Shown here: positions 13,173-55,273 of the stretch, in pieces
Layout of the letters: each line of letters begins with the position of its first letter
How positions within the stretch are numbered: position 1 is the first letter of the stretch
NCBI GenBank assembly: GCA_051953515.1
Contig: JBQCIS010000114.1
Coordinates: 2,226 to 66,225, forward strand
DNA: 64,000 nt
Direction of reading: 5' to 3'
Source of the DNA: Mucilaginibacter sp.
Lineage (GTDB): Bacteria > Bacteroidota > Bacteroidia > Sphingobacteriales > Sphingobacteriaceae
Position numbers and translations under genes: made by a program
The notes under the pieces: generated by a model
Told to the model about the DNA's origin: nothing
Database searches by the model: none
What the model saw: only the letters and a program-made list of their open reading frames with translations

Positions 13173-13603
13173 GTTTTTAAATATGGTTATAAGTGAAAAA
13201 ATCTTCTCAATTATCCGGGTATTTTTAAAAAATGCCCGAGGGCTGCCTATTCAAAAAAGAGGTGTTGCCAATTCAATCCGCTGCTAAATTATGGTGGTAA
13301 ACTCGGGCGACTTCTTTCCCGGTGAGTGATAAGGTGATATTAATGATAAAATCCGTTTTACGGCAGTACAGGATGTGATACGGATTGATGTTAAGAAAAA
13401 TGAAGATCAGCTATCAAAAAACGCTGTGAAGAATATTTGATCGTTAAACGCCCCTAAACTGAATAGATATACCCCTATCATATTTTGTCCTTTAACGAAT
13501 TTTGTGTTATTCGTTCAGAGTCGCTCATCGTTTCGTCAGCTTCCTTATCAGTAATTGCCCAAAAAATATTGAATCGTTTTAAACTAAAATCAACAAAATA
13601 GTT

Positions 13604-16475: not shown

Positions 16476-16508
16476 TTTGAATAGCTATTACCCTTTTTTT
16501 GAATAGCT
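16476..16508 (+). promoter_or_regulatory. 11-bp direct repeat TTTGAATAGCT x2, 22 bp apart (candidate AraC-type/HTCS binding site)
   Basis: Copies at 16476-16486 and 16498-16508, 115-145 nt upstream of the SusC ATG at 16623. The function is inferred only. Confidence 0.3.
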
Positions 16509-16622
16509 GGCATCCCATGTAAATATATTTTAAGCGTTTAATTTGACTTACCAATTATTCAACGCAATAACCATTGCTGACCATTTTATTTAACAAGATT
16601 TTTAACATTTGAAAAACCACTT

Positions 16623-35391: not shown

Positions 35392-35419
35392 AACTATCAA
35401 TGGCTGTTATTTCATATAT

Positions 35420-35446
35420 GACAACGAAAGTTAAATATTATACTCT
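35420..35446 (-). promoter_or_regulatory. Variant of the ECF-type promoter-like motif (AGAGTAT-N16-TGTC) upstream of the 542-aa unknown
   Basis: The minus strand reads attgAGAGTATaatatttaactttcgtTGTCatata, with the exact 16-nt spacer. TGTC ends 29 nt before the ATG at 35391. Confidence 0.35.
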
Positions 35447-36527: not shown

Positions 36528-36627
36528 GGAGGATAGCAATACAGATTATCTAAAAAGGACCTCATCAGAATGAACCCCAAAAACCAATTTGATTTAACAA
36601 ACGATCCGATATGGATTATGTACTTAA

Positions 36628-36654
36628 GACGAAAAACCAGTTAATTTATACTCA
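36628..36654 (-). promoter_or_regulatory. ECF-sigma-type promoter-like motif TGAGTAT-N16-CGTC directed at LacI-3
   Basis: The minus strand reads taatacTGAGTATaaattaactggtttttCGTCttaagta. Exact match, about 100 nt upstream of the ATG at 36527. Confidence 0.55.
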
Positions 36655-36815: not shown

Positions 36816-36939
36816 GTTCATATCCCGCAATAATTAAGAGAGATAACCAATTATAATCAGCAATTTAAGTTCTGATTTTTGTATTTGCACGGGGGTTATT
36901 TGGATTATAAGTGTCAAAGTTGCAATAAAAATTTAAAAT

Positions 36940-37392
36940 ATGAATGCCGCACAAAAATTAACTTCCAATTATGCTAATATCTCAACTCACCGGAACGCTT
37001 TAGGGCTTCAACCGGTTGATAATAATAAATTGGAGATGCTTTTGGCGGATACAGTACGTGAGCGGCTGGACATTTTTGAACAGGTGCATACAATACTTTA
37101 CCCATTGATCTTCACCTATGCAAGTCTTTTTCCGGTCGATAGAAGAAAAATAGACCAGATGTTGGTTGATGTGTTTTTTTGCTGTTGGAAAAACCAGCAG
37201 TTCACTTCATGCAGGGAATTGAAAATTGGAATACTAAAAAATCTGCGAAATAAAATTACAGTTGCCTTGAGTATTGAAGGGAAACAAAACGAGTTGCTCA
37301 TACCACAACTTTTAGAAAATGAGTACCTGAAGCGCTTTATGCGCTTGACAGATGACGACATTGCCGAGGTAAACTGCAAATATTCAGCCTGA
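36940..37392 (+). CDS. Hypothetical 150-aa protein, possibly a degenerate/truncated sigma-70-family (region 2 + start of region 4) paralog
   Basis: LYPLIFTYASLFPVDRRKIDQMLVDVFFCCW aligns without gaps to LYSSLYHYLLKMVKEEETADDIVQDVFVKLW of the sigma at 37638 (8/31 identical, including DVF..W). The C-terminus RLTDDDIAEVN resembles the start of a region-4 HTH but then stops. Confidence 0.4.
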   Translation: MNAAQKLTSNYANISTHRNALGLQPVDNNKLEMLLADTVRERLDIFEQVHTILYPLIFTYASLFPVDRRKIDQMLVDVFFCCWKNQQFTSCRELKIGILKNLRNKITVALSIEGKQNELLIPQLLENEYLKRFMRLTDDDIAEVNCKYSA

Positions 37393-37430
37393 AATGAGTA
37401 TCAAAAAGTGATAAGTCTGTCTTTCTGAAT

Positions 37431-37625
37431 ATGAAAGACATAACGCCGAATAACGACGAAGACGAAGTATTACTGCCATTTTGGTTATCAAAGCAGCCAA
37501 TTGATGAGAAGCAGATACAAGAGCATTGGCTTCGGGTCAAAGAAAAGATTACTGTTGAATTATCTGAAAATAATACGGATACATCTGAAAACAACACGGA
37601 TATATCTGAACATGAACGTAATTAA
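37431..37625 (+). CDS. Small acidic 64-aa ORF with a heptapeptide tandem repeat (SENNTDT/SENNTDI), function unknown
   Basis: ATG start; ends 12 nt before the sigma GTG. No TM segment. Coding status is uncertain. Confidence 0.3.
   Translation: MKDITPNNDEDEVLLPFWLSKQPIDEKQIQEHWLRVKEKITVELSENNTDTSENNTDISEHERN
37562..37613 (+). repeat. 21-bp tandem repeat, about 2.4 copies
   Basis: ATCTGAAAATAATACGGATAC / ATCTGAAAACAACACGGATAT / ATCTGAACAT. The repeat is in frame within the 64-aa ORF. Confidence 0.9.
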
Positions 37626-37637
37626 AGCGGATTTTAA

Positions 37638-38210
37638 GTGAAGGTAACTACAAATCAATCGGAGCTGTGGGTTCAGGCCGCCACTGGTAGCCAGGATGCA
37701 TACGCGTTACTTCATAAAAGCCTGTATTCTTCCCTATACCATTATTTGCTTAAAATGGTTAAAGAAGAAGAAACGGCTGATGATATTGTGCAGGATGTTT
37801 TTGTTAAGCTTTGGACAAAAAAAGATCAGATAGGATATATTAAAAATGTAAAAGCCTATTTTTTTACAGTTGCACGGTCAATGGCAATCAATCATTTCAG
37901 ACAACAAAAAATTCAAACGGAAAGACTTGAGCAGATTCATGAAATTGAAATAGAATTCAATCAGGAAGAGGTTATTGTAGCAACAGAAGCCAACACAGAA
38001 CTAAAACAGGCTGTGGCCACTGCATTGAATAACCTTCCGGCAAGGCAGCGCGAGATATTGTACCTGAAGTTTTATGAAGATATGGATTATTACAAGATTG
38101 TTGAAGTTACCGGCATCAGGTACCAGTCTGTAGTTAACCATGTTTTTCGCGCAATTCAAACGTTGCGGGCTGCCGTGAAGCAAAAGGAGTTACTCCTGCG
38201 ATCAGCCTGA
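37638..38210 (+). CDS. ECF-type (group 4) RNA polymerase sigma-70 factor, no adjacent anti-sigma (sigma-1)
   Basis: GTG start. Region 2 DDIVQDVFVKLW...YFFTVARSMAINHFR and region 4 LPARQREILYLKFYEDMDYYKIVEVTGIRYQSVVNHVFRA. Paralog of 46797..47411, sharing the 9-mer RYQSVVNHV. Confidence 0.85.
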   Translation: MKVTTNQSELWVQAATGSQDAYALLHKSLYSSLYHYLLKMVKEEETADDIVQDVFVKLWTKKDQIGYIKNVKAYFFTVARSMAINHFRQQKIQTERLEQIHEIEIEFNQEEVIVATEANTELKQAVATALNNLPARQREILYLKFYEDMDYYKIVEVTGIRYQSVVNHVFRAIQTLRAAVKQKELLLRSA

Positions 38211-41144: not shown

Positions 41145-41171
41145 TGAGTATAAGCCTAATGAGTTGTCGTC
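41145..41171 (+). promoter_or_regulatory. ECF-sigma-type promoter-like motif TGAGTAT-N16-CGTC directed at SusC-3
   Basis: gcagTGAGTATaagcctaatgagttgtCGTCtttatg is an exact match. CGTC ends 67 nt before the ATG at 41238. No TAnnTTTG box is present in this leader. Confidence 0.55.
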
Positions 41172-41237: not shown

Positions 41238-44200
41238 ATGAGTTTTTTTTACAAATGGAAGAATTCTGTAAGATGTCTGTTATTGGCACTGTTGCTAATA
41301 GCCGGTATTGATCTTACAGGTTTTGCACAAACCCGGGAAATTAATGGTACCGTAACTGATGCGGTATCCAAAGATCCGTTGCCGGGAGTAACCGTAAAGA
41401 TAAGCGGCACTTCGATCGGTACGCAAACAGATGCATCAGGTAAGTTCCACATTTCAGCAACTCCCAATGCTAAACTGACATTTTCAATTATCGGCTACGC
41501 AACCAGAGAGGCTACAGTTGCCGAAAGCGGCATTGTGAATGTTCAGTTAGCCGCCACAAAAAACGATCTTAACGAGGTTGTGGTTGTAGGTTATGGTACG
41601 GAAAAAAAAGCTACTGTTACCGGCGCTATCGCAACCGTGTCGTCAAAAGTATTTGAAGACCGCGGGCCTGTAAATAACCCGCTGGAATCATTACAGGGAC
41701 AGGTTGCGGGCGTAATTGTTACCCGCACCTCTGCACAGCCAGGCCGGGAGAATTGGAATTTCCAGATACGTGGCGCTACTTCTACCAATGCGCAGGACCC
41801 TCTAATTGTATTGGATGGAGTTGCCTTATCAAGTAATGCAGAGCTGAATACCATCAACCCGAATGATATCGACAATATTTCGTTCCTAAAAGATGCTTCT
41901 GCATCAATTTACGGTGCACGCGCAGCTTTTGGCGTTGTACTGATTACTACTAAAAAAGCCAAGGCAGGCAAAATGCAAATTAAGTATGATGGCCAGGTGT
42001 CGGAGAAGCTATTAGGCCTGGTGCCTCAGCTTGTTAACGACCAACAATGGGGAGCCGGTTTGCAACAGGCGCTAATAAATGATAATTATGGTGTTGCACC
42101 AACCAGTTATTTGTGGTACCAGTTGGCTTTACTGGCTCAAAATCCTCCTGCATCGGGTTATATCGATATTACCCAATTGCCCGGATATGCAGGGTCAGCT
42201 AATGGTGTACTGTATAATGGAACCCCGCTGCCGTCATTCGGCGATGTAAAAGACTTCACATTCTTTAACACCAACATGGAAAAGATACTGTGGGGAAACA
42301 CCACGTCTCAACAGCATAACCTGAGTTTTTCGGGGCGTTCGGATAAATCCGGTTATTATGTATCACTTGGCTACGAAAATGACGGAAGCCCGCTGAGATA
42401 CGGAACAAACGGTAGCCAAAGGTATAACCTACGCCTTAACCACGACTACAGTTTCAGCGACCGGGTAAAGTTAGAAACTAATATCTCGCTGGAGAGAAAC
42501 GATATTCAGCAGCCATCATTATTAAGCGCTTCGGGCTATAGTGCACTTAGCAATTACTCGCAGCCAGGTTTGCCCGCATTTACCTCCCAGGGGCAGCCGT
42601 ATGCATGGGGAACAGTATATAGCCCGCCAGGTATGCTAAGAGATGGCGGGGCCAACCGCGAGTATGACAACCGCATTATCTTAAATTCTACTTTGACTTA
42701 TAATTTTGCTAAGCATTTAAACTTTACTGCAACCGCAGGATATAACGACTATTTCCAGGATGTCAGAGTTGATACCAAGCAGGTTCAATACTATAACTAT
42801 GCGGGCAATATCCTGGTGAATACATTCCCCACAAACGGTGCACTTTCTAATGGTGCTAATTATTATCGCCAGAATACCACAGAACCTTATTACAACCTGA
42901 TAGGAAGGGTTTCTTATGATAATACTTTTAATACCGTGCATCATTTAACCGTTATGTTGGGCAGCTCTTACGAGCGTGATGAATACGATATGTTTAATGC
43001 AAGAACCTTTGATTTAGGTGACGAAGACGTTCCTTCACTCAACCTGGGCGTAAATAACGGCACCGCCGGATTTGTTACTGATGGTGAAACGCAAAATCAT
43101 TATGCGCTTGGCTCTTATTTCGGCAGGGCAACGTATAGCTATAAAGGCAAGTATTTATTTGAGGCGATAGGACGTTATGATGGATCTTCGAAATTTATTG
43201 CTGCCGACCGCTGGAAGGTTTTTGGTGGAGCAAATGCCGGCTGGGTAATGTCTGAAGAAAATTTCCTAAAGGATTCAAAGATTATCAACTTTCTTAAACT
43301 GAGAGCATCTTATGGTACAACCGGTAACCAGGGTGGCATTGGTTTGTACGACTATATACAATCATTAAATGTTAATACCGGCGGCCCTTTACTCGGGAAT
43401 AATACGGCTTCTACAGTAACCACTGCCGGAAGCCTTGTTGCCCTGAACCGTACCTGGGAAACTGTAATAAAGAGAAACCTGGGTGTTGACTTTACCTTAT
43501 TCAGAAATTTCTCGGGCTCATTTGATATATTCCGTAACGAAAATCATAATATGCTGCTTGGTCAGGTTTATCCGGCCGAACTGGGTGCATCAGCTCCCGC
43601 GCAAAATATCGGTGACCTCAGAACCTGGGGATGGGAAACACAATTAACATGGAAGGCGAAAGCAGGCAGTGTAAACTATAGTATCTCCGGAACGCTCACT
43701 GATAACCGGAATAAACTCGTTCATTATGGTGGCAAAAATGTGTTGGTTTCAGGTATGAATTCGACTGTTGAAGGCTATCCTCTGAACTCTGTATTTGGTT
43801 TAGAGTATGGGGGACGCCTACAGAATCAGGCGCAGGTTGATGCTTACAACGCTAAATATGCGCCAACCGGCAGTACAAATAATATCGGTCTGCCTATTCC
43901 AACTCCGCTCAAAAATCCAGCCGGGCAAATGTCTGGACTGCGCCCGGGCGACAACACGTATAAGGATGTTAACGGCGATGGGAAGTTAAGTATCGGAACC
44001 AGCACAACCAACCCCGGCGACCTGGTTTATTTGGGTACAAACGATCCGCGTTATTCTTTCGGTCTTAATTTGGGCCTGCAATGGAAAGGATTTGATTTCT
44101 TCGCCATTTTGCAAGGTGTTGGTAAAAGAACAATACTCAGGTCGGGAAACTGGAGAATACCTTACACCACTATTTTCCAGGGGCAAACCAACGAATACGT

Positions 44201-44546
44201 AGGCAATACCTGGTCGCCAAGCGACCCTAATGCATACTATCCAAATCTGCATTCTGCGCAGAATAATGGGATTAATGCCTATAACTACCAACCTTCCAGC
44301 TGGAGCGTTCAGAATGGTGCCTATGCACGTCTAAAAAATCTGGTTATTGGTTACACATTGCCCCAAAGCCTCATGAACCGTATAAAAGGAGTTTCAAAAA
44401 TAAGGGTGTTTGTATCGGGTAGTGACCTGACGGAAATAGATGGGATACATGACGGCTGGGACCCTGAAGCAACCAGTGGCGTAAGCGGAAATGAAAGATT
44501 TCCTTTTTACCGGCTGATAACTGTGGGTGCAAATGTTAGTTTCTAA
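41238..44546 (+). CDS. SusC/RagA-family TonB-dependent transporter (no STN/anti-sigma signalling domain)
   Basis: The signal peptide is followed directly by the CarboxypepD_reg-like domain (INGTVTDAVSKDPLPGVTV). Plug motifs LNEVVVVGYGTEKK and SFLKDASASIYGARAAFGVVLITTKK. Terminal strand VGANVSF. Confidence 0.95.
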   Translation: MSFFYKWKNSVRCLLLALLLIAGIDLTGFAQTREINGTVTDAVSKDPLPGVTVKISGTSIGTQTDASGKFHISATPNAKLTFSIIGYATREATVAESGIVNVQLAATKNDLNEVVVVGYGTEKKATVTGAIATVSSKVFEDRGPVNNPLESLQGQVAGVIVTRTSAQPGRENWNFQIRGATSTNAQDPLIVLDGVALSSNAELNTINPNDIDNISFLKDASASIYGARAAFGVVLITTKKAKAGKMQIKYDGQVSEKLLGLVPQLVNDQQWGAGLQQALINDNYGVAPTSYLWYQLALLAQNPPASGYIDITQLPGYAGSANGVLYNGTPLPSFGDVKDFTFFNTNMEKILWGNTTSQQHNLSFSGRSDKSGYYVSLGYENDGSPLRYGTNGSQRYNLRLNHDYSFSDRVKLETNISLERNDIQQPSLLSASGYSALSNYSQPGLPAFTSQGQPYAWGTVYSPPGMLRDGGANREYDNRIILNSTLTYNFAKHLNFTATAGYNDYFQDVRVDTKQVQYYNYAGNILVNTFPTNGALSNGANYYRQNTTEPYYNLIGRVSYDNTFNTVHHLTVMLGSSYERDEYDMFNARTFDLGDEDVPSLNLGVNNGTAGFVTDGETQNHYALGSYFGRATYSYKGKYLFEAIGRYDGSSKFIAADRWKVFGGANAGWVMSEENFLKDSKIINFLKLRASYGTTGNQGGIGLYDYIQSLNVNTGGPLLGNNTASTVTTAGSLVALNRTWETVIKRNLGVDFTLFRNFSGSFDIFRNENHNMLLGQVYPAELGASAPAQNIGDLRTWGWETQLTWKAKAGSVNYSISGTLTDNRNKLVHYGGKNVLVSGMNSTVEGYPLNSVFGLEYGGRLQNQAQVDAYNAKYAPTGSTNNIGLPIPTPLKNPAGQMSGLRPGDNTYKDVNGDGKLSIGTSTTNPGDLVYLGTNDPRYSFGLNLGLQWKGFDFFAILQGVGKRTILRSGNWRIPYTTIFQGQTNEYVGNTWSPSDPNAYYPNLHSAQNNGINAYNYQPSSWSVQNGAYARLKNLVIGYTLPQSLMNRIKGVSKIRVFVSGSDLTEIDGIHDGWDPEATSGVSGNERFPFYRLITVGANVSF

Positions 44547-44565
44547 AAAGTTAAACAAGATCAAG

Positions 44566-46389
44566 ATGAAAAATCATAGAACCGGATACTTAACTGTATT
44601 ATTCATAACCCTGTTGGGAATGATTCAATACAGCTGTAATAAAGCGTTAAACTTAAAGCCATTAGATCAGTTGTCTGATGCCGCTTACTTTAAAACACCG
44701 AATGACTTTAAAACATTCGCAAATCAATATTATACCTGGACAAAAACCTTTGCTACATTACCAGGCATTGGTTCAAATTATCATACGGATGACAAGTCGG
44801 ACCTGACCGGTGGCGGCGGTGCTGTAGGCGCAGGCACAAACACAATCCCCACTACAGACGGAACATGGAATGCCGCTTATGCAAGAATTCGTAATTGTAA
44901 TTATTTGCTTACTAAAGCAGCCACCTATTCCAATCCCACTGCAATAGCTCAGTACGTTGCAGAAGCTAAGTTTTTTCGGGCCATGCAGTATTTTGAACTA
45001 TTGGAAGATTATGGCGGAGTCCCGATCGTTACCGCTTTGCTTGATCCGTCGTCGCCAGCATTATATGGTTCACGCGCCTCAAGGGATGCAGTTGTAGATC
45101 AAATCGTCTCAGACTTGCAGGCTGCTATACCCGGGCTTCCGGTGTACCTTGCTTATGGGTCTTCAGATTATGGCCGCGTAACGCAAGGGGCGGCACAGGC
45201 TTTCCTGGGACGGGTTGCATTGTATGAGGGCACCTGGCAGAAATTCAGAAACGGAGATGCAACGCGATATAACAACTTGTTGGATATCAGTATCGCTGCA
45301 TCCAATAGTGTTATTACGGGTAATCATTATGCGTTATTTGGCACTCCTGCATCCGATGCGTTGGGTGGAGGAAACAGCAGTTTACTGGGCGACTCGGCAC
45401 TAAAATATTTGTTTATTTTAGAGAACCCGAAATCAAACCCTGCCGGTATTACAAAAGCAGCCAATCATGAATACATCTTTGCCACACGATATGATGATGT
45501 GTTGAAGGTTGCTAATAACAACATTAGCCATTCTGCTTCAATTGGCGTAAATCATAAAGAAATTGATATGTTCTTATGTGCAGACGGCCTTCCGGTAGAA
45601 AAATCGACGCTCTTCCAGGGATTTCAAACATACACCTCTGAGTTTCAAAACCGCGACAATAGATTAAGGTATACCGTTAAAATAGTAGGCAACTATTACT
45701 GGCAAGGGAATGCCAACTACAGGATAAACTGGACCAGCGATGCAGCTGATCGCGCCAATTCATTAGGCCCCGCTATACCTGGCGCAGGTTATGGCAGCCA
45801 GAAATGGGTGTCGGAAAGACAGGTACCCGATTATAAAGAATCAGAAGATTGTCCGATTATCAGATACGCAGAAGTGCTGCTGAACTATGCAGAGGCCGTT
45901 TACGAACGTAATGGCTCAATAAGCGATGCTGATTTGGATAAATCAATCAACCTGGTAAGGTTGCGCGTAAACCGGGATAACGGAATGCCGAAGCTAAGCA
46001 ACGCCTTTGTTAACACTAATGGTCTTGATATGCGCACAGAAATACGTCGTGAGCGAGCTGTGGAATTGTTTGATGAAGATTTCCGTTTAGATGATATCAA
46101 ACGCTGGCATAGTGCACAAACCGACCTGGTAACAAATGTTGGCGGGGTTGCTTACGGCAATGCAGCCGGATTTGTAAGCTCCTGGCCTATTGGCGTTAAA
46201 TTTACCGGTACACAAGCACAATTGGGCCCTAACCCCATTAAACCGGTTCCGAATAATCCGTTGGATGCAAACGGGTTCCTGATTACCGATCAAACAGCCA
46301 GAGGTTTCACAGAAAAGAACTATTTATACCCGCTGCCCGCGCAGGAATTGTCGCTTAATCCTAAACTGGTGCAAAACCCAGGCTGGTAA
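44566..46389 (+). CDS. SusD/RagB-family lipoprotein
   Basis: The ATG at 44566 gives a lipoprotein signal (LLGMIQYSC). C-terminal block RRERAVELFDEDFRLDDIKRWH ... LVQNPGW. Confidence 0.9.
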   Translation: MKNHRTGYLTVLFITLLGMIQYSCNKALNLKPLDQLSDAAYFKTPNDFKTFANQYYTWTKTFATLPGIGSNYHTDDKSDLTGGGGAVGAGTNTIPTTDGTWNAAYARIRNCNYLLTKAATYSNPTAIAQYVAEAKFFRAMQYFELLEDYGGVPIVTALLDPSSPALYGSRASRDAVVDQIVSDLQAAIPGLPVYLAYGSSDYGRVTQGAAQAFLGRVALYEGTWQKFRNGDATRYNNLLDISIAASNSVITGNHYALFGTPASDALGGGNSSLLGDSALKYLFILENPKSNPAGITKAANHEYIFATRYDDVLKVANNNISHSASIGVNHKEIDMFLCADGLPVEKSTLFQGFQTYTSEFQNRDNRLRYTVKIVGNYYWQGNANYRINWTSDAADRANSLGPAIPGAGYGSQKWVSERQVPDYKESEDCPIIRYAEVLLNYAEAVYERNGSISDADLDKSINLVRLRVNRDNGMPKLSNAFVNTNGLDMRTEIRRERAVELFDEDFRLDDIKRWHSAQTDLVTNVGGVAYGNAAGFVSSWPIGVKFTGTQAQLGPNPIKPVPNNPLDANGFLITDQTARGFTEKNYLYPLPAQELSLNPKLVQNPGW

Positions 46390-46796: not shown

Positions 46797-47411
46797 TTAG
46801 ATTTGAACCTGCTGGCAGTAATTTCCATCTGCCCGAATATAGCCGCTCTCATTATTCTTATTTTTTTCGGTAAGCTTTAAACGAAGCTGGTTGATGCCAC
46901 GGTGAACATGATTCACCACGGATTGATACCGCAAACCGGTTAGCTGCGCGATCTGGTCATAACTCCAATCATCATAGTACCTAAGGAAGATCATTTCCTT
47001 TTGGCGGTTGGGCAGCATATTGAGTGCTTGAGAAAGCATCCGTTTCATTTCCATGCTTGCTTCCTGATCAACCAAAATGTCTTCTGCTGAAAATACGATA
47101 TCAATCTGATGGCCGCCATTTAGATCAATCGGCTCGGTCTTATTTGCTCTGAGGAAAGTTATGGCAAGCGAGCGTGCCGATTTGAAGAAATAATATTTGA
47201 CGTTTTTGATAGGGCCAAGCCGTTCTCTACGCTCCCAAAGCTTTACGAAAAGATCCTGCAAAATATCTTGCGCAGCATCTTCATCCTTCACAATTTTAAA
47301 CAGGTAATAATATAATGCGGAATAAAGCGTGTTATGAATACGGCTAAAAGATTGCACATCTCCGTTAAGTGTTTCTTCCCACCATTTGGATAATTCATCG
47401 CAATTGTTCAT
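46797..47411 (-). CDS. ECF-type RNA polymerase sigma-70 factor, no adjacent anti-sigma (sigma-2)
   Basis: Region 2 QDILQDLFVKLW...YFFKSARSLAITFLR and region 4 LPNRQKEMIFLRYYDDWSYDQIAQLTGLRYQSVVNHVHRG. It lies 213 nt downstream of HTCS-2 on the same strand. Confidence 0.85.
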   Translation of the reverse strand: MNNCDELSKWWEETLNGDVQSFSRIHNTLYSALYYYLFKIVKDEDAAQDILQDLFVKLWERRERLGPIKNVKYYFFKSARSLAITFLRANKTEPIDLNGGHQIDIVFSAEDILVDQEASMEMKRMLSQALNMLPNRQKEMIFLRYYDDWSYDQIAQLTGLRYQSVVNHVHRGINQLRLKLTEKNKNNESGYIRADGNYCQQVQI

Positions 47412-47555
47412 GGCTAATCAGGTTATTTTTAGAGCCGCAACTTATGGTATATCGAAGTATCGCGACCATTTCTGTCAGACGACGATTTGTTTATACTTAA
47501 GGCGGTATAATTGGTTTACAAGAGCTAATATGAGGCGTTTTTTCCGGGAAAAAGG

Positions 47556-47587
47556 GGCACAAATTAGTCATTTAAAAGGCACAAATT
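47556..47587 (-). promoter_or_regulatory. 10-bp direct repeat GGCACAAATT x2, 22 bp apart (candidate AraC-type/HTCS-2 site) upstream of sigma-2
   Basis: Copies at 47556-47565 and 47578-47587; the extended match is 14 of 16 nt. They lie 145-176 nt upstream of the sigma-2 ATG. The function is inferred only. Confidence 0.3.
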
Positions 47588-47624
47588 CGGCAGTATGGAA
47601 AAGGTGAGTATGGAGAGTTAGTGT

Positions 47625-50600
47625 TTAATCAATGATGTTAAAGCGCTTTTTGAAAATGGGCCTTTTTTGTTTCAAAAACTCGGAAGGGTTTACGCCAAAC
47701 AGATTAAAGAACTGCGTACGGAAATATTTGATGCTATTGAATCCTGTTTCCAGCGCAACTTCATTCACGTTCATATCGGACTCAATCAGGAGCTGAGCAG
47801 CTTTTCGCAGACGGATATATCTTATAAAACCGTTAACCGTGTGCCCCGATAATGACTTAACTTTTCTGTACAGGTTAGAATGGCTCATACCGATTTCCGC
47901 TGCCAGTACTTTAATGGAAAAATTTTCATCTGTCAAGTGCCGCTCAACAATATAAATACACTTTTCGAGGAATAATTTATACTCATCTGAGATAACAATG
48001 TCAGGCGATTTAAGGGTAATTGTATTAAAAAAGTAGTCCTGTAAATTGGAACGCATCTGCAGCAGATTGGCAATGCGCGCTATCAGAACATCTTTTTCAA
48101 AAGGCTTCTGGATATAATCATCAGCACCGCTTTCAAGGCCTTTGATCTTGTTTTCCAGACCAGCGCTTGCCGTAAGCAGAATCATAGGAATATAACTAAG
48201 TTGCTGATCCTGTTTTATGATAGAACAGAGCTCTATTCCATTCATACCCGGCATCATTACATCACATACAATCATGTCAGGCTGTCTTTTTCGGGCAATT
48301 TCAAGACCGGCTTCCGCATTTTCAGCCTCGTATACCACATAAATTCCTTCCAAAATGGACCGGATATATTTCCTGATCTGATTGTCATCATCAATCACCA
48401 GGATCGTTCTCTTGTCTGTAAAGATTTCCCGTATCTGGTATGCTGCTTCATCAGCGGTTGTTACGTCCTGATTTTCTGTTTTACCGTCTGCTAATTCAGC
48501 AAGGAGGGCAGAGGCTTGATCTGATATTTCCACTATTTCGGTAGTGCCGGAATGTTGGGTACCTTTTGGCAATTCAAGGCTGAATATTGTGCCATGACCT
48601 GCGGCGCTTTTAAAAGTGAGCTGTCCGTGATGTTGATTGGTAAACTGTTTGGCAAGGTAAAGCCCGATGCCAAAACCGCTTTGCTGTCCCTGTTTGTTTG
48701 ATCGATAGAATTTTTCAAATATACTCGTCCCAACGTTTGCCGGGATACCTGGCCCGCTATCAGCCACCTCGATAACAATGTTATTGGTAAACTCTAACAA
48801 TCGTACGGTTACTTTTTGTCCTTTAGGCGTATACTTGATGGCGTTTGAAATAAGGTTGAATAGAATGATCTCAATCTTTTCGCGGTCGCCGTAAATAACT
48901 ATAGCATTTTCAGGAATTTCAAGTTCAAAACAGATATCATTCAACTTGGCCTGCTGAACGAAGCATAGGTAAACTTCGCGGCATACTACAACAATGTTTA
49001 AGCCGGCAATTTGCAAATTGTCAGCTACCGCATCAGCTTTTCTGAAAAGCAACAACTGGTCAACTAAGCTAAGCAGGCGTTTCGAGTTGCGGTAAACTAT
49101 ATCCAGCTCCCTGCGATCTTGGCCCGCGCTATTCTGTAACAGGTCTTTTACCGGATTAATGATGAGTGATAATGGTGTACGAAACTCATGCGAAACACCG
49201 GTGAAGAAATCAATACGGCGCTCATTCAGTTCTTTTTCTTTTTCCTGCAGGTTTCGCTGAAATTCGGCATTTGCATTGGCCAGTTTTACTTCATACTTTA
49301 ACCTGTTTTCCCTAAACCGGTTCCTGAAGAACCAATAGAGAAGTCCGGTTAAAATGAGGGTATATGCAATATAAGCCCAAATAGTACGGTACCACGGCGG
49401 CAATACAATAATCTGTAAAGTAAGGTTTTTCTGTATCCACTTCCCATCAGGATTAGTACAATTGATGCGAAGCGTATAATTGCCCGGATCTAACCGTGTA
49501 TATAGTATATTGCGCTGCTGGCCTGCGTCAATCCAATCCCGGTCCCAACCCTGAAGCATATAACGATACCTGATTCTTTCCTGGGCAGTAAACTCTATTG
49601 CGGCAAAGCGAAACGATAATGATGCTTTTGCGAAAGGGACAATTAGCGACGTGAGCCGTGCATGGCTATCTGCAACCATATAACCATCTTGCGGGTTCGG
49701 CTCCTTACCATTGATTTTAAGATCCGTTAACGCAATATCAGGATCATTTCGCAGTGCGCCCAATTGTTCCGGGGCAAAGATTGTAAGACCACCCGTCCCG
49801 CCGAAGGCCAGTTCGCCGCTTCTTAATGCAGCAGATGCATTGAAGTTGAATTCCCTGCTGGCCAAGCCATCACTGGTGAAGAAATTGGTAAACGACTGGT
49901 CGCGCGGATCAAAGCGACACAGGCCATTGTATGTGCTCAGCCATAATTTATGCGCCCGGTCTTCCTCAATAGATAATATGTTATTGTCGCACAGACCGGT
50001 CTTAGTGGTGTATTGACTGGTAACCTTCCCCTGAGATTTTGCAAAGTACATTAACCCGCCTTCTGTTCCCAGCCAAAGGTCGCCGTTGGAGCACAGACGG
50101 ATCGACCTTACCGGTTTACCTATACGATAATATTTAAATTTTTTTCGTTTTGCATCAATCTCATATATCCCATCAAAGTTGCCGGCCCATAACTTGCCGT
50201 ACTTATCTTCGCGTAAAGCGAGGATATTAGATATTTCTGCGTCGTAAAGCAAAAAGGCGTCCGAATGCCGGTCATAAAGATATAGCCCGTCCTGTAATCC
50301 GCTTGCCCAGATATTCCCATTATGGTCCAGGCAAAAGCACCAGAAGGTAAGGGCGTTTTTGCCGTTAGCACCATGCCCGAAATAGGTTTTAAATTTGTTT
50401 TCGTCAGGCTGATAAAGATCGATGCCGCCACCATAGGTTGCTATCCATATTTTTTTAGCAGAATCCTGTATAATGCTGGTTACAAAGTCGGAGCTTATTG
50501 TTCCGGGAATACGCGGATCCCTGCGAAGGTTTGTAAACCGGCTTTCTTTACGATTCCAAATACTTAAACCGCCACCGTCGGTACCGATCCATATTTTTTG

Positions 50601-51755
50601 ATCGCGATCCTCAAATACCGATTTTACAAAATTGCTGATAAGGCTATTGGAGTTTAACGGATCATGCCGTACGTTTTGAAACTGACTTTTTACATCATCT
50701 ATAACGTTGATTCCGCCGCGCAACGTTCCGATCCATTTTCGGCCGTCCCTATCCAATAACATGCTATAAACAGCATCGCTGGAAAGCGCTTGCTGGTTAT
50801 AACCTGCTGATAAATAGCTAACGTGACTGCGGCTATTGTCGAGGATCTGAATACCGCCTCCATCAGTGCCTACCCATAAAGTTCCGTCAGGCATTTGCCG
50901 TAAACAGGTTACCCTATTTGACCGGAATCCTGATGTTGATTCGCTGAATATCTTATCATAGCCGTTATTTTGGGTATTAAAGTGATACAGGCCCACTGTT
51001 GTGCCCACCCACAGGTTCTGGTGATCGGGATAGAGGCAAGTGCCTGAGGCCACGCTTGAATTAATAGCATGCAGCTTTCTTTTTACAGGGTCGTATTCAT
51101 AAAGACCGTTTCCGGCTATCATTAAATAGGTTTTACCGCCAGGAAGAATCAATAATGCATCAACAGAGTAATCGTACCGGGTAATACCATTATTATTCCA
51201 TGGAATACAATGTCCAACGTTATTTCCTTTGTCAAAAACGATTAACCCGCCGTTAAGGGTTGCAGCATATATCTGACCGTGCTTGTCTATCTGGACATCA
51301 TGAATATAATTGGTGATCCGGGCATGCGTTCCGTCGGGATGAACAACATAGGCAGCGGCGAACTGTTCGGTCAGCGGGTTCAATACGCTGATACCTTGCC
51401 GCGTTCCTACCCATAACCTGTTAAGCAGATCCTCTGTAATGCAGTTTACATAGCTGTGAATAATTGAAGTTGTATCTTCAGGCTGATTGCGGTAAACCCG
51501 GAAATCATAGCCATCATAACGGTTCAGGCCATTATAAGTTCCAAACCAAAGGAGGCCCTTACTGTCCTGAAATATGCAACGTATTTCGCTGTTCGATAGT
51601 CCATCCTTTAAACCAATTTTATCAATATTATATAAAGGGCTGGCTAAAGTAAGCTGTGCCGACAGAAGCCAAAAAAAGGTTATCAATCCGGTAAAAAAAG
51701 GGAAGCTTTTTACAATTCCTAAAGACAGACTCGCGCTCCTGTTCTTGCCGATCAT
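47625..51755 (-). CDS. Hybrid two-component system sensor kinase/response regulator with AraC-type HTH (HTCS-2)
   Basis: The first ATG is at 51755 (MIGKNRS...); the track start at 51770 is TTG. Propeller repeats (LWFGTYNGL, LWVGTDGGGI), TM IWAYIAYTLILTGLLYWFF, HisKA FTGVSHEFRTPLSLI, HATPase GFGIGLYLAK, receiver ILVIDDDNQIR...CDVMMPGMNG, AraC HTH YFRTQFFNLFGVNPSEF. Confidence 0.95.
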   Translation of the reverse strand: MIGKNRSASLSLGIVKSFPFFTGLITFFWLLSAQLTLASPLYNIDKIGLKDGLSNSEIRCIFQDSKGLLWFGTYNGLNRYDGYDFRVYRNQPEDTTSIIHSYVNCITEDLLNRLWVGTRQGISVLNPLTEQFAAAYVVHPDGTHARITNYIHDVQIDKHGQIYAATLNGGLIVFDKGNNVGHCIPWNNNGITRYDYSVDALLILPGGKTYLMIAGNGLYEYDPVKRKLHAINSSVASGTCLYPDHQNLWVGTTVGLYHFNTQNNGYDKIFSESTSGFRSNRVTCLRQMPDGTLWVGTDGGGIQILDNSRSHVSYLSAGYNQQALSSDAVYSMLLDRDGRKWIGTLRGGINVIDDVKSQFQNVRHDPLNSNSLISNFVKSVFEDRDQKIWIGTDGGGLSIWNRKESRFTNLRRDPRIPGTISSDFVTSIIQDSAKKIWIATYGGGIDLYQPDENKFKTYFGHGANGKNALTFWCFCLDHNGNIWASGLQDGLYLYDRHSDAFLLYDAEISNILALREDKYGKLWAGNFDGIYEIDAKRKKFKYYRIGKPVRSIRLCSNGDLWLGTEGGLMYFAKSQGKVTSQYTTKTGLCDNNILSIEEDRAHKLWLSTYNGLCRFDPRDQSFTNFFTSDGLASREFNFNASAALRSGELAFGGTGGLTIFAPEQLGALRNDPDIALTDLKINGKEPNPQDGYMVADSHARLTSLIVPFAKASLSFRFAAIEFTAQERIRYRYMLQGWDRDWIDAGQQRNILYTRLDPGNYTLRINCTNPDGKWIQKNLTLQIIVLPPWYRTIWAYIAYTLILTGLLYWFFRNRFRENRLKYEVKLANANAEFQRNLQEKEKELNERRIDFFTGVSHEFRTPLSLIINPVKDLLQNSAGQDRRELDIVYRNSKRLLSLVDQLLLFRKADAVADNLQIAGLNIVVVCREVYLCFVQQAKLNDICFELEIPENAIVIYGDREKIEIILFNLISNAIKYTPKGQKVTVRLLEFTNNIVIEVADSGPGIPANVGTSIFEKFYRSNKQGQQSGFGIGLYLAKQFTNQHHGQLTFKSAAGHGTIFSLELPKGTQHSGTTEIVEISDQASALLAELADGKTENQDVTTADEAAYQIREIFTDKRTILVIDDDNQIRKYIRSILEGIYVVYEAENAEAGLEIARKRQPDMIVCDVMMPGMNGIELCSIIKQDQQLSYIPMILLTASAGLENKIKGLESGADDYIQKPFEKDVLIARIANLLQMRSNLQDYFFNTITLKSPDIVISDEYKLFLEKCIYIVERHLTDENFSIKVLAAEIGMSHSNLYRKVKSLSGHTVNGFIRYIRLRKAAQLLIESDMNVNEVALETGFNSIKYFRTQFFNLFGVNPSEFLKQKRPIFKKRFNIID

Positions 51756-52106
51756 CGATTTCTGTGCCAATTGTTCAGATTGAAAAACGCAGAGACATTA
51801 TAATAGAATGGAATTATTTTTCCGTACGGGGAGGCTTTGGTTGGTTGAGACGCTTTAAAATAGTTTCCCAGCTTTTTTTTACGCGCTCTTCATCCACCTG
51901 TGGCTTTTTGATTTTGAACGTGTCGGAAATATCAGTTTCCTTAATTTTTTTCATCGCAGTCTCTTATGCCATTGTACGGCTGCAAATAACAACCCTGTTT
52001 TGTTAACAAATGTATAAGAAATATTGAATAATGGACAGATAATGTACTTATAGATATGAACATAGCTTCTGATAGAGAAGGTTGCCGTCTTAAATTTTCT
52101 TAATGA

Positions 52107-52133
52107 TGAGTATCGGGATGTGGATTTTCCGTC
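52107..52133 (+). promoter_or_regulatory. ECF-sigma-type promoter-like motif TGAGTAT-N16-CGTC directed at the beta-helix hydrolase gene
   Basis: taatgaTGAGTATcgggatgtggattttcCGTCcttattg is an exact match. CGTC ends 27 nt before the ATG at 52160. Confidence 0.55.
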
Positions 52134-52159
52134 CTTATTGCAATTATTAATCGAAACCA

Positions 52160-53644
52160 ATGTCTAAATTTCTGTTACCATTAATCATTATTATCTTATT
52201 TGTATTCAATTACGCAGATGCCCAGCTCATTACCTATAAACAACCGGATTGTAATATGGTCAGTCATGCCTATGGAGTTGAGGTAAGGCAGGGGAAAGGC
52301 GATTGGCAGAATGCAGGCGTTTATCAGGCTGATGTCGCCGCTAAATTAGATGCGCAACATGTTACAAAAAAAACATGCTTTACATATTTCGATTGCTCGG
52401 GTAATGTTAACGTCAGGGTAAAAGTTAACTATAGCAACGTAAGGACCGCGATAGTAAGACCTGCTTCTTATGGAATTGTTCCCAGGATCAGGGGCAATTT
52501 TATAGAGTTTTCAATGAAGCCGTCTCAATATATTTCTTTAGAGGTGAACGGCGACATTTTTCAGAATCTTCAGCTTTTTTCAAACGTTATTGAAAAAGAC
52601 AGGCCAAAGGCCGGCGATCCTAATGTGATCTACTTTGGCCCCGGAGTGCATAATATTGGTCGGATGGAAGTACCCGCTAACAAGACGGTTTATATTGCAG
52701 GAGGTGCAATTGTAGAAGGCGGGTTTATAATGGATCACGTGAAAAACATAAATATTCGCGGCCGCGGTATTCTAACACAATATATCGTACGACCCGACCA
52801 AAATCTCAGCGAAGCCAGGCCGTTGTCTCACGGTGAGCGCGATGACCAGATGCTGATACAGTATAGTGAAAATGTAAATGTAAGCGGCATTATAGAAGTG
52901 CCTAAAGGTTATTCGGTAATGGTCGGGCAGTCGAAACAGATCAGTATTTCGGATTTTAAATCATTTAGCGCGCTGGGTAATGCGGATGGGATCGATATAT
53001 TTTGCAGCAGCAGCGTGGCAATCAATCGCATCTTTATGCGAAACTCAGACGACTGTATCGCAATCTATGGTCATCGCTGGCATTACTATGGCAATACCAA
53101 TAATATTACCATTGATAATGCTACGCTTTGGGCCGATGTTGCACATCCTGTACTCATTGGTACGCATGGCGATACAAGTCATCCTGATACGTTACAAAAT
53201 ATCGGGTTTCACAATCTGGTAATTCTGGATCAGCATGAAAACCAGCTCGACTACCAGGGATGCATGGCAATTAATGCAGGAGATAGCAATTTGATAAGGA
53301 ATATCAGTTTCGAGAATGTGGAGGTTGGAAATATTCGCAAGGGCCAGTTATTTAACCTTCGCGTCATGTTTAACAGAAAATATAATACATCACCGGGACG
53401 CGGAATAGTGCATATCCGGTTTAAAAATGTGAGTTATACGGGTTCACGCGCCAACATGTCTGTTATCAGTGGATATGATGATCTTCGCACCGTCAAAGAT
53501 GTTGTTTTTGAAAATCTTAAAATTAATGGAACGTTGATATACGATAAGATGACAACCAAACCGGGATTCTATAAAACCGGCGACATGGCAAACATTTTTA
53601 TCGGCGAACATACCGAGGGAATAAACTTTATTACAGGCAACTAA
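52160..53644 (+). CDS. Right-handed beta-helix glycoside hydrolase, GH28-like (polygalacturonase-type motifs; GH49-like N-terminal sandwich possible)
   Basis: Signal peptide. GNADGIDIF (NxDG), MRNSDDCIAIYG (DDC), LIGTHGD (HG) and IRFKNV (R-x-K) occur in GH28 order. Confidence 0.6.
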   Translation: MSKFLLPLIIIILFVFNYADAQLITYKQPDCNMVSHAYGVEVRQGKGDWQNAGVYQADVAAKLDAQHVTKKTCFTYFDCSGNVNVRVKVNYSNVRTAIVRPASYGIVPRIRGNFIEFSMKPSQYISLEVNGDIFQNLQLFSNVIEKDRPKAGDPNVIYFGPGVHNIGRMEVPANKTVYIAGGAIVEGGFIMDHVKNINIRGRGILTQYIVRPDQNLSEARPLSHGERDDQMLIQYSENVNVSGIIEVPKGYSVMVGQSKQISISDFKSFSALGNADGIDIFCSSSVAINRIFMRNSDDCIAIYGHRWHYYGNTNNITIDNATLWADVAHPVLIGTHGDTSHPDTLQNIGFHNLVILDQHENQLDYQGCMAINAGDSNLIRNISFENVEVGNIRKGQLFNLRVMFNRKYNTSPGRGIVHIRFKNVSYTGSRANMSVISGYDDLRTVKDVVFENLKINGTLIYDKMTTKPGFYKTGDMANIFIGEHTEGINFITGN

Positions 53645-53766: not shown

Positions 53767-55035
53767 CTATCTGGTATAAGTTAAGGTGCCAAATCCTAAT
53801 TGATCATAACCACCGCTTGTTGTGCCGTAGTCACCGCCGCCGCCTTCGGGCCTTACTTGTGCGGCATAAGCTGCAATATTAGGCGAACTTAGTCCGCGCA
53901 ATTCAACATAGTAGCCGTAAAGTAATTCCCAGCTTGGACGTATGTCGCCTCTGCCGGAAGAAGAGATTACTGTTTGTGATTGCGGCGCGCAGGTGGTACC
54001 GTTGCCCCAATTGTAAGTGGTAAATGGCACGGTGTTCCCCAGATTATAAGACGCTATGTATTCGCACATCCCCTGTATCCTTGGTCTGACGTCTTTCCAT
54101 GGATTGTATTGAAAAAGATCCTGTCCCTGGTTGAAAGCCATTTGGCAGATCGCTCCGTAAAGGGATACATCAAGGCAACTATGACCCTGGTCGCGGCCAC
54201 TTTCCTGGCATTGCGAAATGCCACCCTGATCGGGATAAGCAAATGGCGCTACGTGTCCGTACGCGCCATTTCCGGCCCCGCTTTTGAAATAACTGATCGC
54301 TTCATTAAACTTGGCTGTGTCATCACATAATACTCCGATTGACAGCACGCTGGCCATACTACAGGCGTCCCAGTTGGCCCAGTAATTGGTGATGCAGGCA
54401 CCGTTGTGATTGGTCAGAAAATCATGATTCATTGGATAAAATATAGTTAGCATCATATTCTGGAAACGGGCAAAGTCTGCCGCTGACCACCCGCTGTACG
54501 ATCGCATAATCTCGGCAGCATTTGCAAATTCATAACCATAGATACCTGCCGCGAGAAAACGATCTGCCGTTCCCTGAATAGAAGTGAGGGTTGAAGACCA
54601 GGCATTCATGATGCTAACGGCCTCATCGGCATTTGCAGTGGTGCCGGCAATCTTCCACCGCAGAGCGTTCTGGTAAGCGGCAGCGATATCATTATACAAT
54701 TTTGAATAATTTTCGGGATAGCCGCTGCCTCGGTAGACGATAGCCGCCGGCCCCTGCATTACATAGGTGGATGAGGAATGCGAGTTAGCAAGCAGTTTAT
54801 CCCATCCTGAAGTTTGTGGCTGTGCGCCCGTGTTAACCTTGCTGATCATTCTGGAAAAGTCTGCCGCACTGTGCAGCAGTCCGGGGTGGGCGAAGGTTGT
54901 TGGGAGCGAATTTACCTGCCGCGCATTTTGTGCAGAAGTTGTGGGACCGGTTTGTGTGGCTGATGCATTTTTCTTACATGAAGACGCAATGCAGGTGCAT
55001 ACGGCCACGGTGGCCATTAAAAGTGTTGCTTTCAT
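53767..55035 (-). CDS. Alginate-lyase-fold polysaccharide lyase-like lipoprotein (paralog of 30490..31608)
   Basis: Lipoprotein signal (CIASSC). FAHPGLLHSAADFSRM, NYWANWDACSMASVLSIGVL and QCQESGRDQGHSCLDVS are present. Confidence 0.5.
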   Translation of the reverse strand: MKATLLMATVAVCTCIASSCKKNASATQTGPTTSAQNARQVNSLPTTFAHPGLLHSAADFSRMISKVNTGAQPQTSGWDKLLANSHSSSTYVMQGPAAIVYRGSGYPENYSKLYNDIAAAYQNALRWKIAGTTANADEAVSIMNAWSSTLTSIQGTADRFLAAGIYGYEFANAAEIMRSYSGWSAADFARFQNMMLTIFYPMNHDFLTNHNGACITNYWANWDACSMASVLSIGVLCDDTAKFNEAISYFKSGAGNGAYGHVAPFAYPDQGGISQCQESGRDQGHSCLDVSLYGAICQMAFNQGQDLFQYNPWKDVRPRIQGMCEYIASYNLGNTVPFTTYNWGNGTTCAPQSQTVISSSGRGDIRPSWELLYGYYVELRGLSSPNIAAYAAQVRPEGGGGDYGTTSGGYDQLGFGTLTYTR

Positions 55036-55091: not shown

Positions 55092-55118
55092 GACAGGAAT
55101 TTGCTTAACCAATACTCA
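55092..55118 (-). promoter_or_regulatory. Variant of the ECF-type promoter-like motif (TGAGTAT-N16-TGTC) directed at the 422-aa lyase-fold gene
   Basis: The minus strand reads ttTGAGTATtggttaagcaaattccTGTCtattatt, with the exact spacer and one mismatch in the -10 element. It lies 57 nt upstream of the ATG at 55035. Confidence 0.4.
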
Positions 55119-55246: not shown

Positions 55247-55273
55247 TGAGTATCGATAGTCTTTTACGTCGTC
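55247..55273 (+). promoter_or_regulatory. ECF-sigma-type promoter-like motif TGAGTAT-N16-CGTC directed at the 2,392-aa gene
   Basis: tatagaTGAGTATcgatagtcttttacgtCGTCtatatcc is an exact match, 107 nt upstream of the ATG at 55380. Confidence 0.55.

Follow-up and report, generated by a model that had tools for sequence, protein, structure and literature searches.

In a 64,000-nt stretch of DNA from the soil bacterium Mucilaginibacter sp. (contig JBQCIS010000114.1, positions 2,226 to 66,225; hereafter the window), the gene for a hybrid two-component system (HTCS) sensor/regulator, HTCS-2, is followed directly and on the same strand by the gene for an extracytoplasmic function (ECF) sigma factor, sigma-2, that has no anti-sigma factor beside it. 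On balance we think it rather likely that HTCS-2 activates transcription of sigma-2, and that sigma-2 then drives the promoters of the surrounding polysaccharide utilisation cluster. This relay had been proposed in a first-pass annotation of the window and is supported here at the level of comparative sequence by the conservation of the tandem, by an operator-like direct repeat between the two genes and by an ECF-type promoter motif that precedes the cluster genes. The gene order and the motifs, with their conservation and distribution, are read directly from the sequences compared. That the HTCS and the sigma factor are functionally coupled in some way, as these sequences suggest, is much more certain than the mechanism of the relay, because the tandem is so strictly conserved. 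The central features are:

47625..51770, minus strand: HTCS-2, hybrid two-component sensor/regulator of 1381 aa (Pfam domains and orthologues)
46797..47411, minus strand: sigma-2, ECF-type sigma factor of 204 aa, no adjacent anti-sigma (Pfam)
47412..47624, minus strand: spacer of 213 nt from the HTCS-2 stop to the sigma-2 start (same-strand neighbours)
47556..47588, minus strand: candidate HTCS-2 operator, direct half-sites GAATTTGTGCC (distal) and TAATTTGTGCC (proximal), 22 bp start to start (repeat and conservation)
47507..47532, minus strand: second conserved block, CATATTAGCT-N7-ACCAATTAT (mean pairwise identity 0.92 in alignment A1)
52007..52014, minus strand: housekeeping-type -7 box TACATTTG (TAnnTTTG), 5' of a small open reading frame (ORF) and HTCS-2 (alignment A2)
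41238..46389, plus strand: SusC-3/SusD-3 transporter pair, likely target operon (Pfam; orthologues in relatives)

Conservation of the HTCS-2/sigma-2 tandem

HTCS-2 combines a periplasmic sensor, a kinase, a receiver and an AraC-type helix-turn-helix in one polypeptide, as is characteristic of the Bacteroidota HTCS; its Reg_prop, Y_Y_Y, HisKA, HATPase_c, Response_reg and HTH_18 (AraC-type) domains all score above the Pfam cut-offs, and both the H-box (SHEFRTPL) and the context of the receiver aspartate are recognisable in the translation. The gene had been taken to extend to 51755, where there is indeed an in-frame ATG; the listed ORF starts with a TTG at 51770.

The Pfam content of sigma-2 is limited to Sigma70_r2 (PF04542) and Sigma70_r4_2 (PF08281), the composition of an ECF (group 4) sigma factor, and the protein scores 87 bits against TIGR02937, above the cut-off of 42.9. 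Its closest sigma family by sequence is TIGR02985 (Bacteroides expansion family 1, ECF240-like), for which it stays under the cut-off (100.3 bits versus 126.4; its paralogue sigma-1, described below, scores 110.1). It is likewise under the cut-off for NF058625 and, when ECF39 membership was tested with TIGR02983 (SigE-fam_strep), it reached 81 bits against a cut-off of 141.55. No FecR-type anti-sigma gene flanks sigma-2 on either side in the window, in agreement with the earlier description of an orphan sigma; on the 3' side there is a gap of 400 nt and then the convergent SusD. SusC-3 lacks the STN signalling domain (PF07660) and begins with CarbopepD_reg_2 and Plug, as do its orthologues in loci L001 and L007. 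We place sigma-2 outside the classical cluster sigma family (TIGR02985/FecI-like) because of the score below the cut-off, the lack of a FecR partner and the SusC without STN. The closest relatives of sigma-2 are from Mucilaginibacter species, and an identical protein is annotated in a Mucilaginibacter metagenome-assembled genome; its C-terminal tail is short, 11 aa beyond its 193-aa relatives.

An HTCS gene is found directly 5' of the sigma gene and on the same strand in 15 of the 16 related loci that carry a sigma-2 relative, in Mucilaginibacter and Pedobacter, with sigma identities in the tandem-bearing loci reaching down to 41% (orthologues 41-83%). A genome scan with sigma-2 returned eight Mucilaginibacter loci (L001-L008; 69-74% sigma identity), every one of them with an HTCS-2 orthologue (61-68% identity) in this position; look-ups of genomic context found the same arrangement around more distant homologues (L011, L012, L013/L014, L015, L016, L017 and L020), including L013/L014 from Pedobacter ginsenosidimutans, where the tandem is kept at 41% sigma identity. 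L018 (40% sigma identity) is the only locus without an adjacent HTCS. Conservation of the tandem, which the first-pass annotation had made a test of its own proposal, therefore extends over two genera, and a two-component system in a conserved neighbourhood without an anti-sigma (15/16 loci) is one feature of an ECF39-like mode of control. The distance from HTCS to sigma in the relatives is 150-275 nt. Within the HTCS-2 orthologues the AraC output domain is the best-conserved part (61-88% identity versus 33-63% for the sensor), the pattern expected if the operator is conserved.

A FecR gene stands beside the sigma gene in none of the 16 related loci; the one in L018, ~7 kb upstream, goes with another sigma, and the SusC carrying STN in this locus is unrelated. 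The gene following sigma in the relatives is a GH43 or a SusC gene, and the ORFs of 329-352 aa found 3' of sigma-2 orthologues, considered as candidate anti-sigma genes, encode GH43 enzymes and not FecR. Several relatives present the order HTCS, sigma, (GH43), SusC, SusD on one strand, and orthologues of SusC-3/D-3 lie downstream of sigma on the same strand in L001, L002, L007, L011 and L012. In the window, SusC-3/D-3 (41238-46389) is inverted by comparison with L001, L007, L011 and L012, and converges on sigma-2 rather than following it.

The spacer and its candidate operator

The earlier description of HTCS-2 and sigma-2 as same-strand genes 213 nt apart with no strong terminator between them was confirmed by the ORFs and by a terminator scan, which found no terminator-like site in 47412-47624. 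The predicted RNA fold of the spacer does not differ significantly from that of shuffled sequence (z = -0.07) and an Rfam search of the spacer gave no match; on these results together, a structured RNA or a terminator was rejected.

Within the spacer, GGCACAAATT occurs exactly at 47556-47565 and 47578-47587, with a spacing of 22 bp from start to start. The 10-bp exact repeat and its phasing are thus as first reported; the extended match is 13/15, or 13/16 by our own count, and not the 14/16 given earlier. For a single spacer, chance occurrence of an exact 10-nt repeat is only mildly unlikely, and the repeat is significant because it is conserved in related loci. The half-site pair is kept in 16/16 related spacers, with the alignment consensus (G/T)AATTTGTRCC-N11-12-(G/T)AATTTGTRCC; in close relatives (alignment A1) its mean pairwise identity is 0.84, versus 0.57 over the remainder of the spacer, and with distant relatives included (alignment A3) the values are 0.70 and 0.30. 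The Pedobacter loci and L018 retain it (for example as GAAAATACACTCC-N8-GAATTTATACCC), with a phasing of 20-22 bp. When the loci were scanned for a degenerate pair of half-sites (RAWTTRTRCC twice, 20-24 bp apart, up to three mismatches), each gave a single strong tandem match, always before the sigma gene; the candidates for further copies elsewhere in the loci were chance-level matches, mostly intragenic. Bacteroides HTCS operators have been predicted to be direct repeats with ~21 bp between sites (PMC3878776), an architecture matched by the repeat upstream of sigma-2 and by that at SusC-1 (see below); the proposal that the layout suits an AraC-type output domain is consistent with both.

Other roles for the repeat were considered and set aside. 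As a housekeeping -33/-7 promoter it would be too short, with 22 bp from TTTG to TTTG where TTTG-N19-21-TAnnTTTG would be needed, and the G of TTTG is not conserved in Pedobacter; as an ECF promoter it offers no fitting GAGTAT/YGTC pair. A further repeat at the HTCS-2 end of the spacer (AGTATGGA at 47592 and 47607, 15 bp apart, 47592-47614, plus strand) is not kept in relatives and is treated as specific to the window and probably incidental; its plus strand contains a TGAGTAT without a matching -10 block.

TAnnTTTG is the consensus of the Bacteroidota housekeeping-type -7 box. A degenerate box of this kind is present in the second conserved block, at 47507-47532 (TAGCTCTT in the window, TAGCTTTC or TAGCTTTT in relatives), and this block is probably a weak core promoter or start-site region of sigma-2. 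Upstream of HTCS-2 and its small ORF, the TACATTTG box sits in a conserved block, TTATATTTTTG / TTATACATTTG (alignment A2).

The cluster of the other HTCS of the window, HTCS-1 (23808-27875), which has no adjoining sigma gene, provides an internal control. Its candidate operators are:

16476..16508, plus strand: TTTGAATAGCT twice (16476 and 16498), exact 11-nt repeat with 22-bp spacing, directly 5' of SusC-1
13244..13276, minus strand: TTGAATTGGCA / TTGAATAGGCA, 22 bp apart, 5' of the hydrolase gene 11937-13172

The repeat at the hydrolase gene carries the same core as TTTGAATAGCT, on the opposite strand, and the half-site sequences differ between the sigma-2 and HTCS-1 promoters, which fits their recognition by different HTCS proteins. 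At both the SusC-1 and the sigma-2 promoter the 9-mer ACCAATTAT begins 50-52 nt after the start of the proximal half-site. It has only five occurrences in the 64-kb window on both strands, among them 16550-16558 (plus), 47507-47515 (minus) and 36846-36854 (plus), the last being 3' of a TACATTTG -7 box upstream of orf150 (see below), and it may be a start-site or leader element. By these features the region upstream of sigma-2 looks like an HTCS-activated promoter of a type used elsewhere in the genome.

The same spacer could be read in another way, with HTCS-2 and sigma-2 forming one operon and cooperating as proteins, the receiver or AraC domain binding, stabilising or recruiting sigma-2, and the repeat serving another purpose. 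A spacer without terminator or RNA structure, the strict conservation of the tandem and the ECF-type motif found upstream of the HTCS unit in relatives would all suit such an arrangement, for which there is a parallel in the stabilisation of the ECF sigma SigP by PorX in Porphyromonas (PMC7826278). However, the best-conserved part of the HTCS is its AraC DNA-binding domain, which would thus need a DNA target; the sole conserved HTCS-type repeat of each locus sits before the sigma gene; and the spacer, at 150-275 nt, is long and has a conserved promoter-like block within it. We consider cooperation at the protein level unlikely.

The ECF-type promoter motif, sigma-1 and the small ORFs

The relay further predicts promoters that sigma-2 could read. 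The pattern TGAGTAT-N14-18-CGTC has four matches in the window versus 0.09 expected, none of them in the spacer; the consensus proper is GAGTAT-N16-YGTC(T)TT. In 271 kb, made up of the window and 12 related loci, GAGTAT-N16-YGTC occurs at 39 sites where shuffled sequence predicts 1.16; with few exceptions they are intergenic and lead into cluster genes 10-120 nt downstream, including orthologues of SusC-3, GH28, GH97, GH43, lyases and a LacI-family gene. In the window, all sites fall within 35-56 kb and the HTCS-1 cluster has none:

41145..41171, plus strand: TGAGTAT-N16-CGTC, 66 nt 5' of SusC-3
52107..52133, plus strand: motif, 26 nt 5' of GH28 (52160)
55247..55273, plus strand: motif 5' of a 2392-aa secreted lyase (55380)
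55092..55118, minus strand: motif, TGTC variant, 5' of the lyase gene 53767-55035
36628..36654, minus strand: motif 5' of the LacI-family gene 35478-36539
35420..35446, minus strand: motif, TGTC variant, 5' of the 545-aa gene 33763-35400
37395..37421, plus strand: motif, TGTC variant, 5' of the small ORF and sigma-1 operon

The same motif precedes the SusC-3 orthologues of L001, L002, L007, L011 and L012. An HTCS-type repeat was found in none of the upstream regions of the motif-bearing cluster operons, and SusC-3 has no short-range direct repeat upstream, which bears out the first description of the 41238-46389 pair as preceded by the ECF-type motif and not by an HTCS-type repeat. A spacing of 16 nt and a YGTC -10 block are typical of ECF promoters. 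The recognition helix of sigma region 4.2, YQSV.N.V.R, is invariant across the sigma family from Mucilaginibacter to Pedobacter, which would match the conservation of the -35 block.

HTCS-2 might instead activate the cluster promoters directly, either with GAGTAT-N16-YGTC as its operator or through sites that escaped detection, in which case the sigma factor would be merely co-regulated or unrelated and the repeat bound by a different factor. In favour of this reading, the motif has its two blocks separated by about two helical turns (centre to centre), and in L018 the repeat is present without an adjacent HTCS. Yet the blocks differ from one another, which is to be expected of a -35/-10 pair and not of half-sites recognised by a homodimer; at several genes only 10-30 nt separate the end of the motif from the start codon, too little (26 nt at GH28) to leave space for a separate core promoter; YGTC is a typical ECF -10 element; and in the HTCS-1 cluster the pattern of direct HTCS control is a 22-bp direct repeat. 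Direct control of these operons by HTCS-2 is, in our view, quite improbable.

For the relay itself, the motif distribution also bears on feedback. GAGTAT-N16-YGTC is absent from every HTCS-sigma spacer, as had been noted for the window; the conclusion drawn from this, that sigma-2 is not autoregulated, was too strong and is limited to the spacer itself, because in relatives the motif also precedes the unit formed by the small ORF and HTCS (in Pedobacter, 49 nt before HTCS). The module thus probably includes positive feedback, which could work by read-through.

Several observations were made on the genes and intervals around these sites. In L003 (5155-5260), L007 (5017 onwards) and L008 (4793 onwards), GAGTAT-N16-TGTC lies just after a LacI stop codon and is followed ~80-90 nt further on by a conserved small hairpin, ACCGTnCGGTT, and then by a GC-rich hairpin and a T-run; the interval from LacI to the HTCS unit could thus encode a small RNA whose expression depends on the sigma factor, and this arrangement is absent at the corresponding position of the window. 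In L001, L007, L011 and L012, GH28 is set apart from the HTCS unit by GH97 and LacI genes, which are missing at this place in the window (51955-52160). The 545-aa protein (33763-35400, minus strand), for which Pfam and NCBIfam gave no match, is encoded between two LacI-family genes and conserved in L019 (2356-3981). The 2392-aa secreted protein (55380-62558, plus strand) combines an alginate-lyase fold with Laminin_G_3, He_PIG, two CBM_3 domains and a type IX secretion tail, and its orthologue adjoins the HTCS unit in L011.

The window contains a second sigma factor of this family, sigma-1, and both sigma genes are associated with small ORFs:

37431..38210, plus strand: 64-aa small ORF (37431-37625), then sigma-1 (37638-38210); 46% identity to sigma-2, same layout in L019
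51814..51954, minus strand: conserved 46-aa small ORF directly 5' of HTCS-2 (DNA alignment; annotated as a hypothetical protein in Mucilaginibacter genomes)
L001 ~5415-5567; L011 3313-3462; L012 3026-3208 and 3347-3496; L019 6001-6174; L020 6001-6183 and 6321-6470: homologues of the small protein

Sigma-1 probably reads the same promoters as sigma-2 and shares its regulon, judging from the recognition helix, and it may act as an amplifier of the response. Because sigma-1 shares the recognition-helix residues and has the motif upstream of its own operon, the promoters of the window are not assignable to sigma-2 alone; of the earlier claim that sigma-2 switches on the TGAGTAT/CGTC promoters, the motif proved real and, within the window, confined to 35-56 kb. 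Just 5' of the small ORF and sigma-1 there is a 150-aa ORF (orf150, 36940-37392, plus strand), conserved in L019 (5501-5962), whose similarity to this sigma family is restricted to the sigma-2 domain (hhalign probability 89%, E = 2e-6); it seems to be a truncated or degenerate sigma paralogue.

That the 46-aa small ORF is coding is suggested by the third-position changes of the DNA alignment. It belongs to a Mucilaginibacter-specific family of small proteins of 46-64 aa with the core F.I...(V/I)(D/S/T)E..I...W..I, encoded 5' of the HTCS-2/sigma-2 unit and directly 5' of sigma-1. The member associated with sigma-1 contains a 21-nt tandem duplication (37562-37603, plus strand) that repeats the peptide SENNTD. 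No Pfam match and no transmembrane segment were found for the small protein, which could not be assigned to a known domain; a likeness to the juxtamembrane segment of FecR, seen by eye, is not claimed. A homologue was not recognisable upstream of the HTCS in L013, the one Pedobacter locus examined for it, and a strict peptide-pattern scan of all loci likewise found none in that locus, but this pattern missed known homologues. Since tandem, repeat and motif are all retained in Pedobacter and no homologue was recognised upstream of the L013 HTCS, the core module appears to be independent of the small protein. That the small ORF encodes a soluble anti-sigma or co-regulator, with release of sigma-1 and sigma-2 as the real switch and HTCS-2 in a secondary role, would suit the position of its homologues, which in Mucilaginibacter lie directly 5' of sigma-1 (13 nt away in L019) and, at times as a pair of copies, 5' of the HTCS-2/sigma-2 units, but is very doubtful given the L013 result, the lack of a match to any Pfam family and the absence of a transmembrane segment, the data suggesting no route for signal sensing.

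The proposed relay and its relation to known systems

From these comparisons we infer that the HTCS binds the repeat, that the sigma factor reads the cluster promoters and that control runs from the one to the other. In the relay so envisaged, the small ORF and HTCS-2 would be expressed from a housekeeping-type promoter with its TAnnTTTG -7 box, and HTCS-2 would sense a periplasmic oligosaccharide and respond by phosphotransfer. The dimeric AraC-type output domain would then bind the half-sites (G/T)AATTTGTGCC, 22 bp apart and ~145 nt 5' of the sigma-2 start codon; with the proximal half-site at the position of a -33 element beside the weak -7-like box, binding would activate sigma-2 transcription. 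Newly made sigma-2 would be active, its activity being set by abundance because there is no anti-sigma factor, and would direct RNA polymerase to the GAGTAT-N16-YGTC promoters of SusC-3/D, GH28, the two lyases, the LacI-family gene, the 545-aa gene and the small-ORF/sigma-1 operon. Sigma-1, with the same invariant recognition-helix residues, would probably reinforce the response.

Some observations weigh against this account. The core promoter 3' of the repeat fits the TAnnTTTG consensus only weakly, and some or even most of the sigma-2 transcript may come from read-through of the HTCS promoter, which is possible because the spacer has no terminator. L018 retains the repeat 5' of its sigma gene without an adjacent HTCS; another regulator could bind it there, or the HTCS could be encoded elsewhere in that genome. 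In the window, the motif could be read by the 46%-identical paralogue sigma-1, whose invariant recognition-helix residues are the same, and the conserved small ORF found 5' of both sigma genes might encode a sigma regulator that has escaped recognition.

More tentatively, and with considerable doubt, the relay could be extended to a three-layer circuit across the Sphingobacteriaceae, in which an HTCS licenses an anti-sigma-free ECF sigma that switches on the whole cluster and, in Mucilaginibacter, also a second, paralogous sigma, with the genus-specific small protein and a decoy consisting only of a sigma-2 domain modulating the sigma factors; this would be a fourth, hybrid mode of control beside SusR, HTCS and ECF/anti-sigma systems.

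Cluster regulation in Bacteroidota is taught as a set of alternatives, SusR, HTCS, or an ECF sigma with its anti-sigma. If a conserved cascade from HTCS to orphan sigma is real, these alternatives can be wired in series, which would add a step of amplification and threshold and would allow one sensor to reach many scattered promoters through a short sigma motif. The analysis also yields three testable predictions of a kind rare for the phylum: an HTCS operator, a consensus (GAGTAT-N16-YGTC) for the target promoters of a Bacteroidota ECF sigma family, and the residues by which the sigma factor probably reads it. A sigma/promoter pair that is free of an anti-sigma and under the control of a sugar sensor could serve as an orthogonal expression switch in the engineering of Bacteroidota.

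Two-component control of ECF sigma factors has been described. In ECF39 (CseBC/sigma-E) the two-component system directly activates transcription of the sigma gene, in ECF32 the control is indirect, and the groups linked to two-component systems in the 2021 ECF reclassification are ECF15, 246, 32, 234 and 39, none of which is described as a partner of a Bacteroidota HTCS (PMC7826278). In a 2024 review, HTCS and ECF/anti-sigma figure as two distinct canonical systems (PMC10766802). The literature searched, coverage of which was incomplete, yielded no account of an HTCS-to-ECF relay in a polysaccharide utilisation cluster; the first-pass annotation had likewise been aware of none, a view that needs qualifying, since control of sigma transcription by a sensor is already known and what is new is the HTCS players and the setting in a polysaccharide cluster.

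Among the known systems, the dCas12f-associated sigma factors are encoded beside a dCas12f gene, have a distinctive C-terminal domain and occur in loci without SusCD associations (PMC13472631); sigma-2 has no Cas12f-like gene beside it and only a short tail, and its locus has SusC/D, so this system was rejected. Like the Bacteroidota ECF/FecR/SusC trans-envelope signalling systems (ECF240-like, TIGR02985), the locus has an ECF sigma inside a utilisation cluster, presumably driving susC/D; unlike them, it has no FecR beside the sigma (in the window and the 16 related loci), SusC-3 and its orthologues lack STN, and sigma-2 is under the family cut-off (100.3 versus 126.4). PorXY/SigP of Porphyromonas gingivalis is also a Bacteroidota two-component system that acts through an orphan ECF sigma (PMC7826278), but its regulator acts on the sigma protein itself, which it contacts and stabilises, its genes form no conserved tandem accompanied by an operator-like repeat, and its output is the type IX secretion system.

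The classical Bacteroides HTCS loci (BT4663, BT1754) share the domain architecture of the sensor/regulator and a predicted operator that is a direct repeat of ~21-22 bp (PMC3878776), a pattern followed by the HTCS-1 cluster; here, in contrast, the repeat lies before a sigma gene and not before the susC and enzyme operons, which carry the ECF-type promoter. In CseBC/sigma-E of Streptomyces coelicolor (ECF39), as here, a regulator gene adjoins an ECF sigma gene without an anti-sigma and sigma activity is set by transcription (PMC7826278). The two differ in phylum and sigma clade (TIGR02983, 81 bits versus a cut-off of 141.55); in their components, a separate kinase and OmpR-type regulator there and a single-polypeptide hybrid with AraC output here; in their output, envelope stress there and a polysaccharide utilisation cluster here; and in gene order, which is reversed, the sensor here preceding the sigma. 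The proposed relay is a conserved and testable departure from the textbook regulation of such clusters, and its underlying logic has precedent elsewhere.

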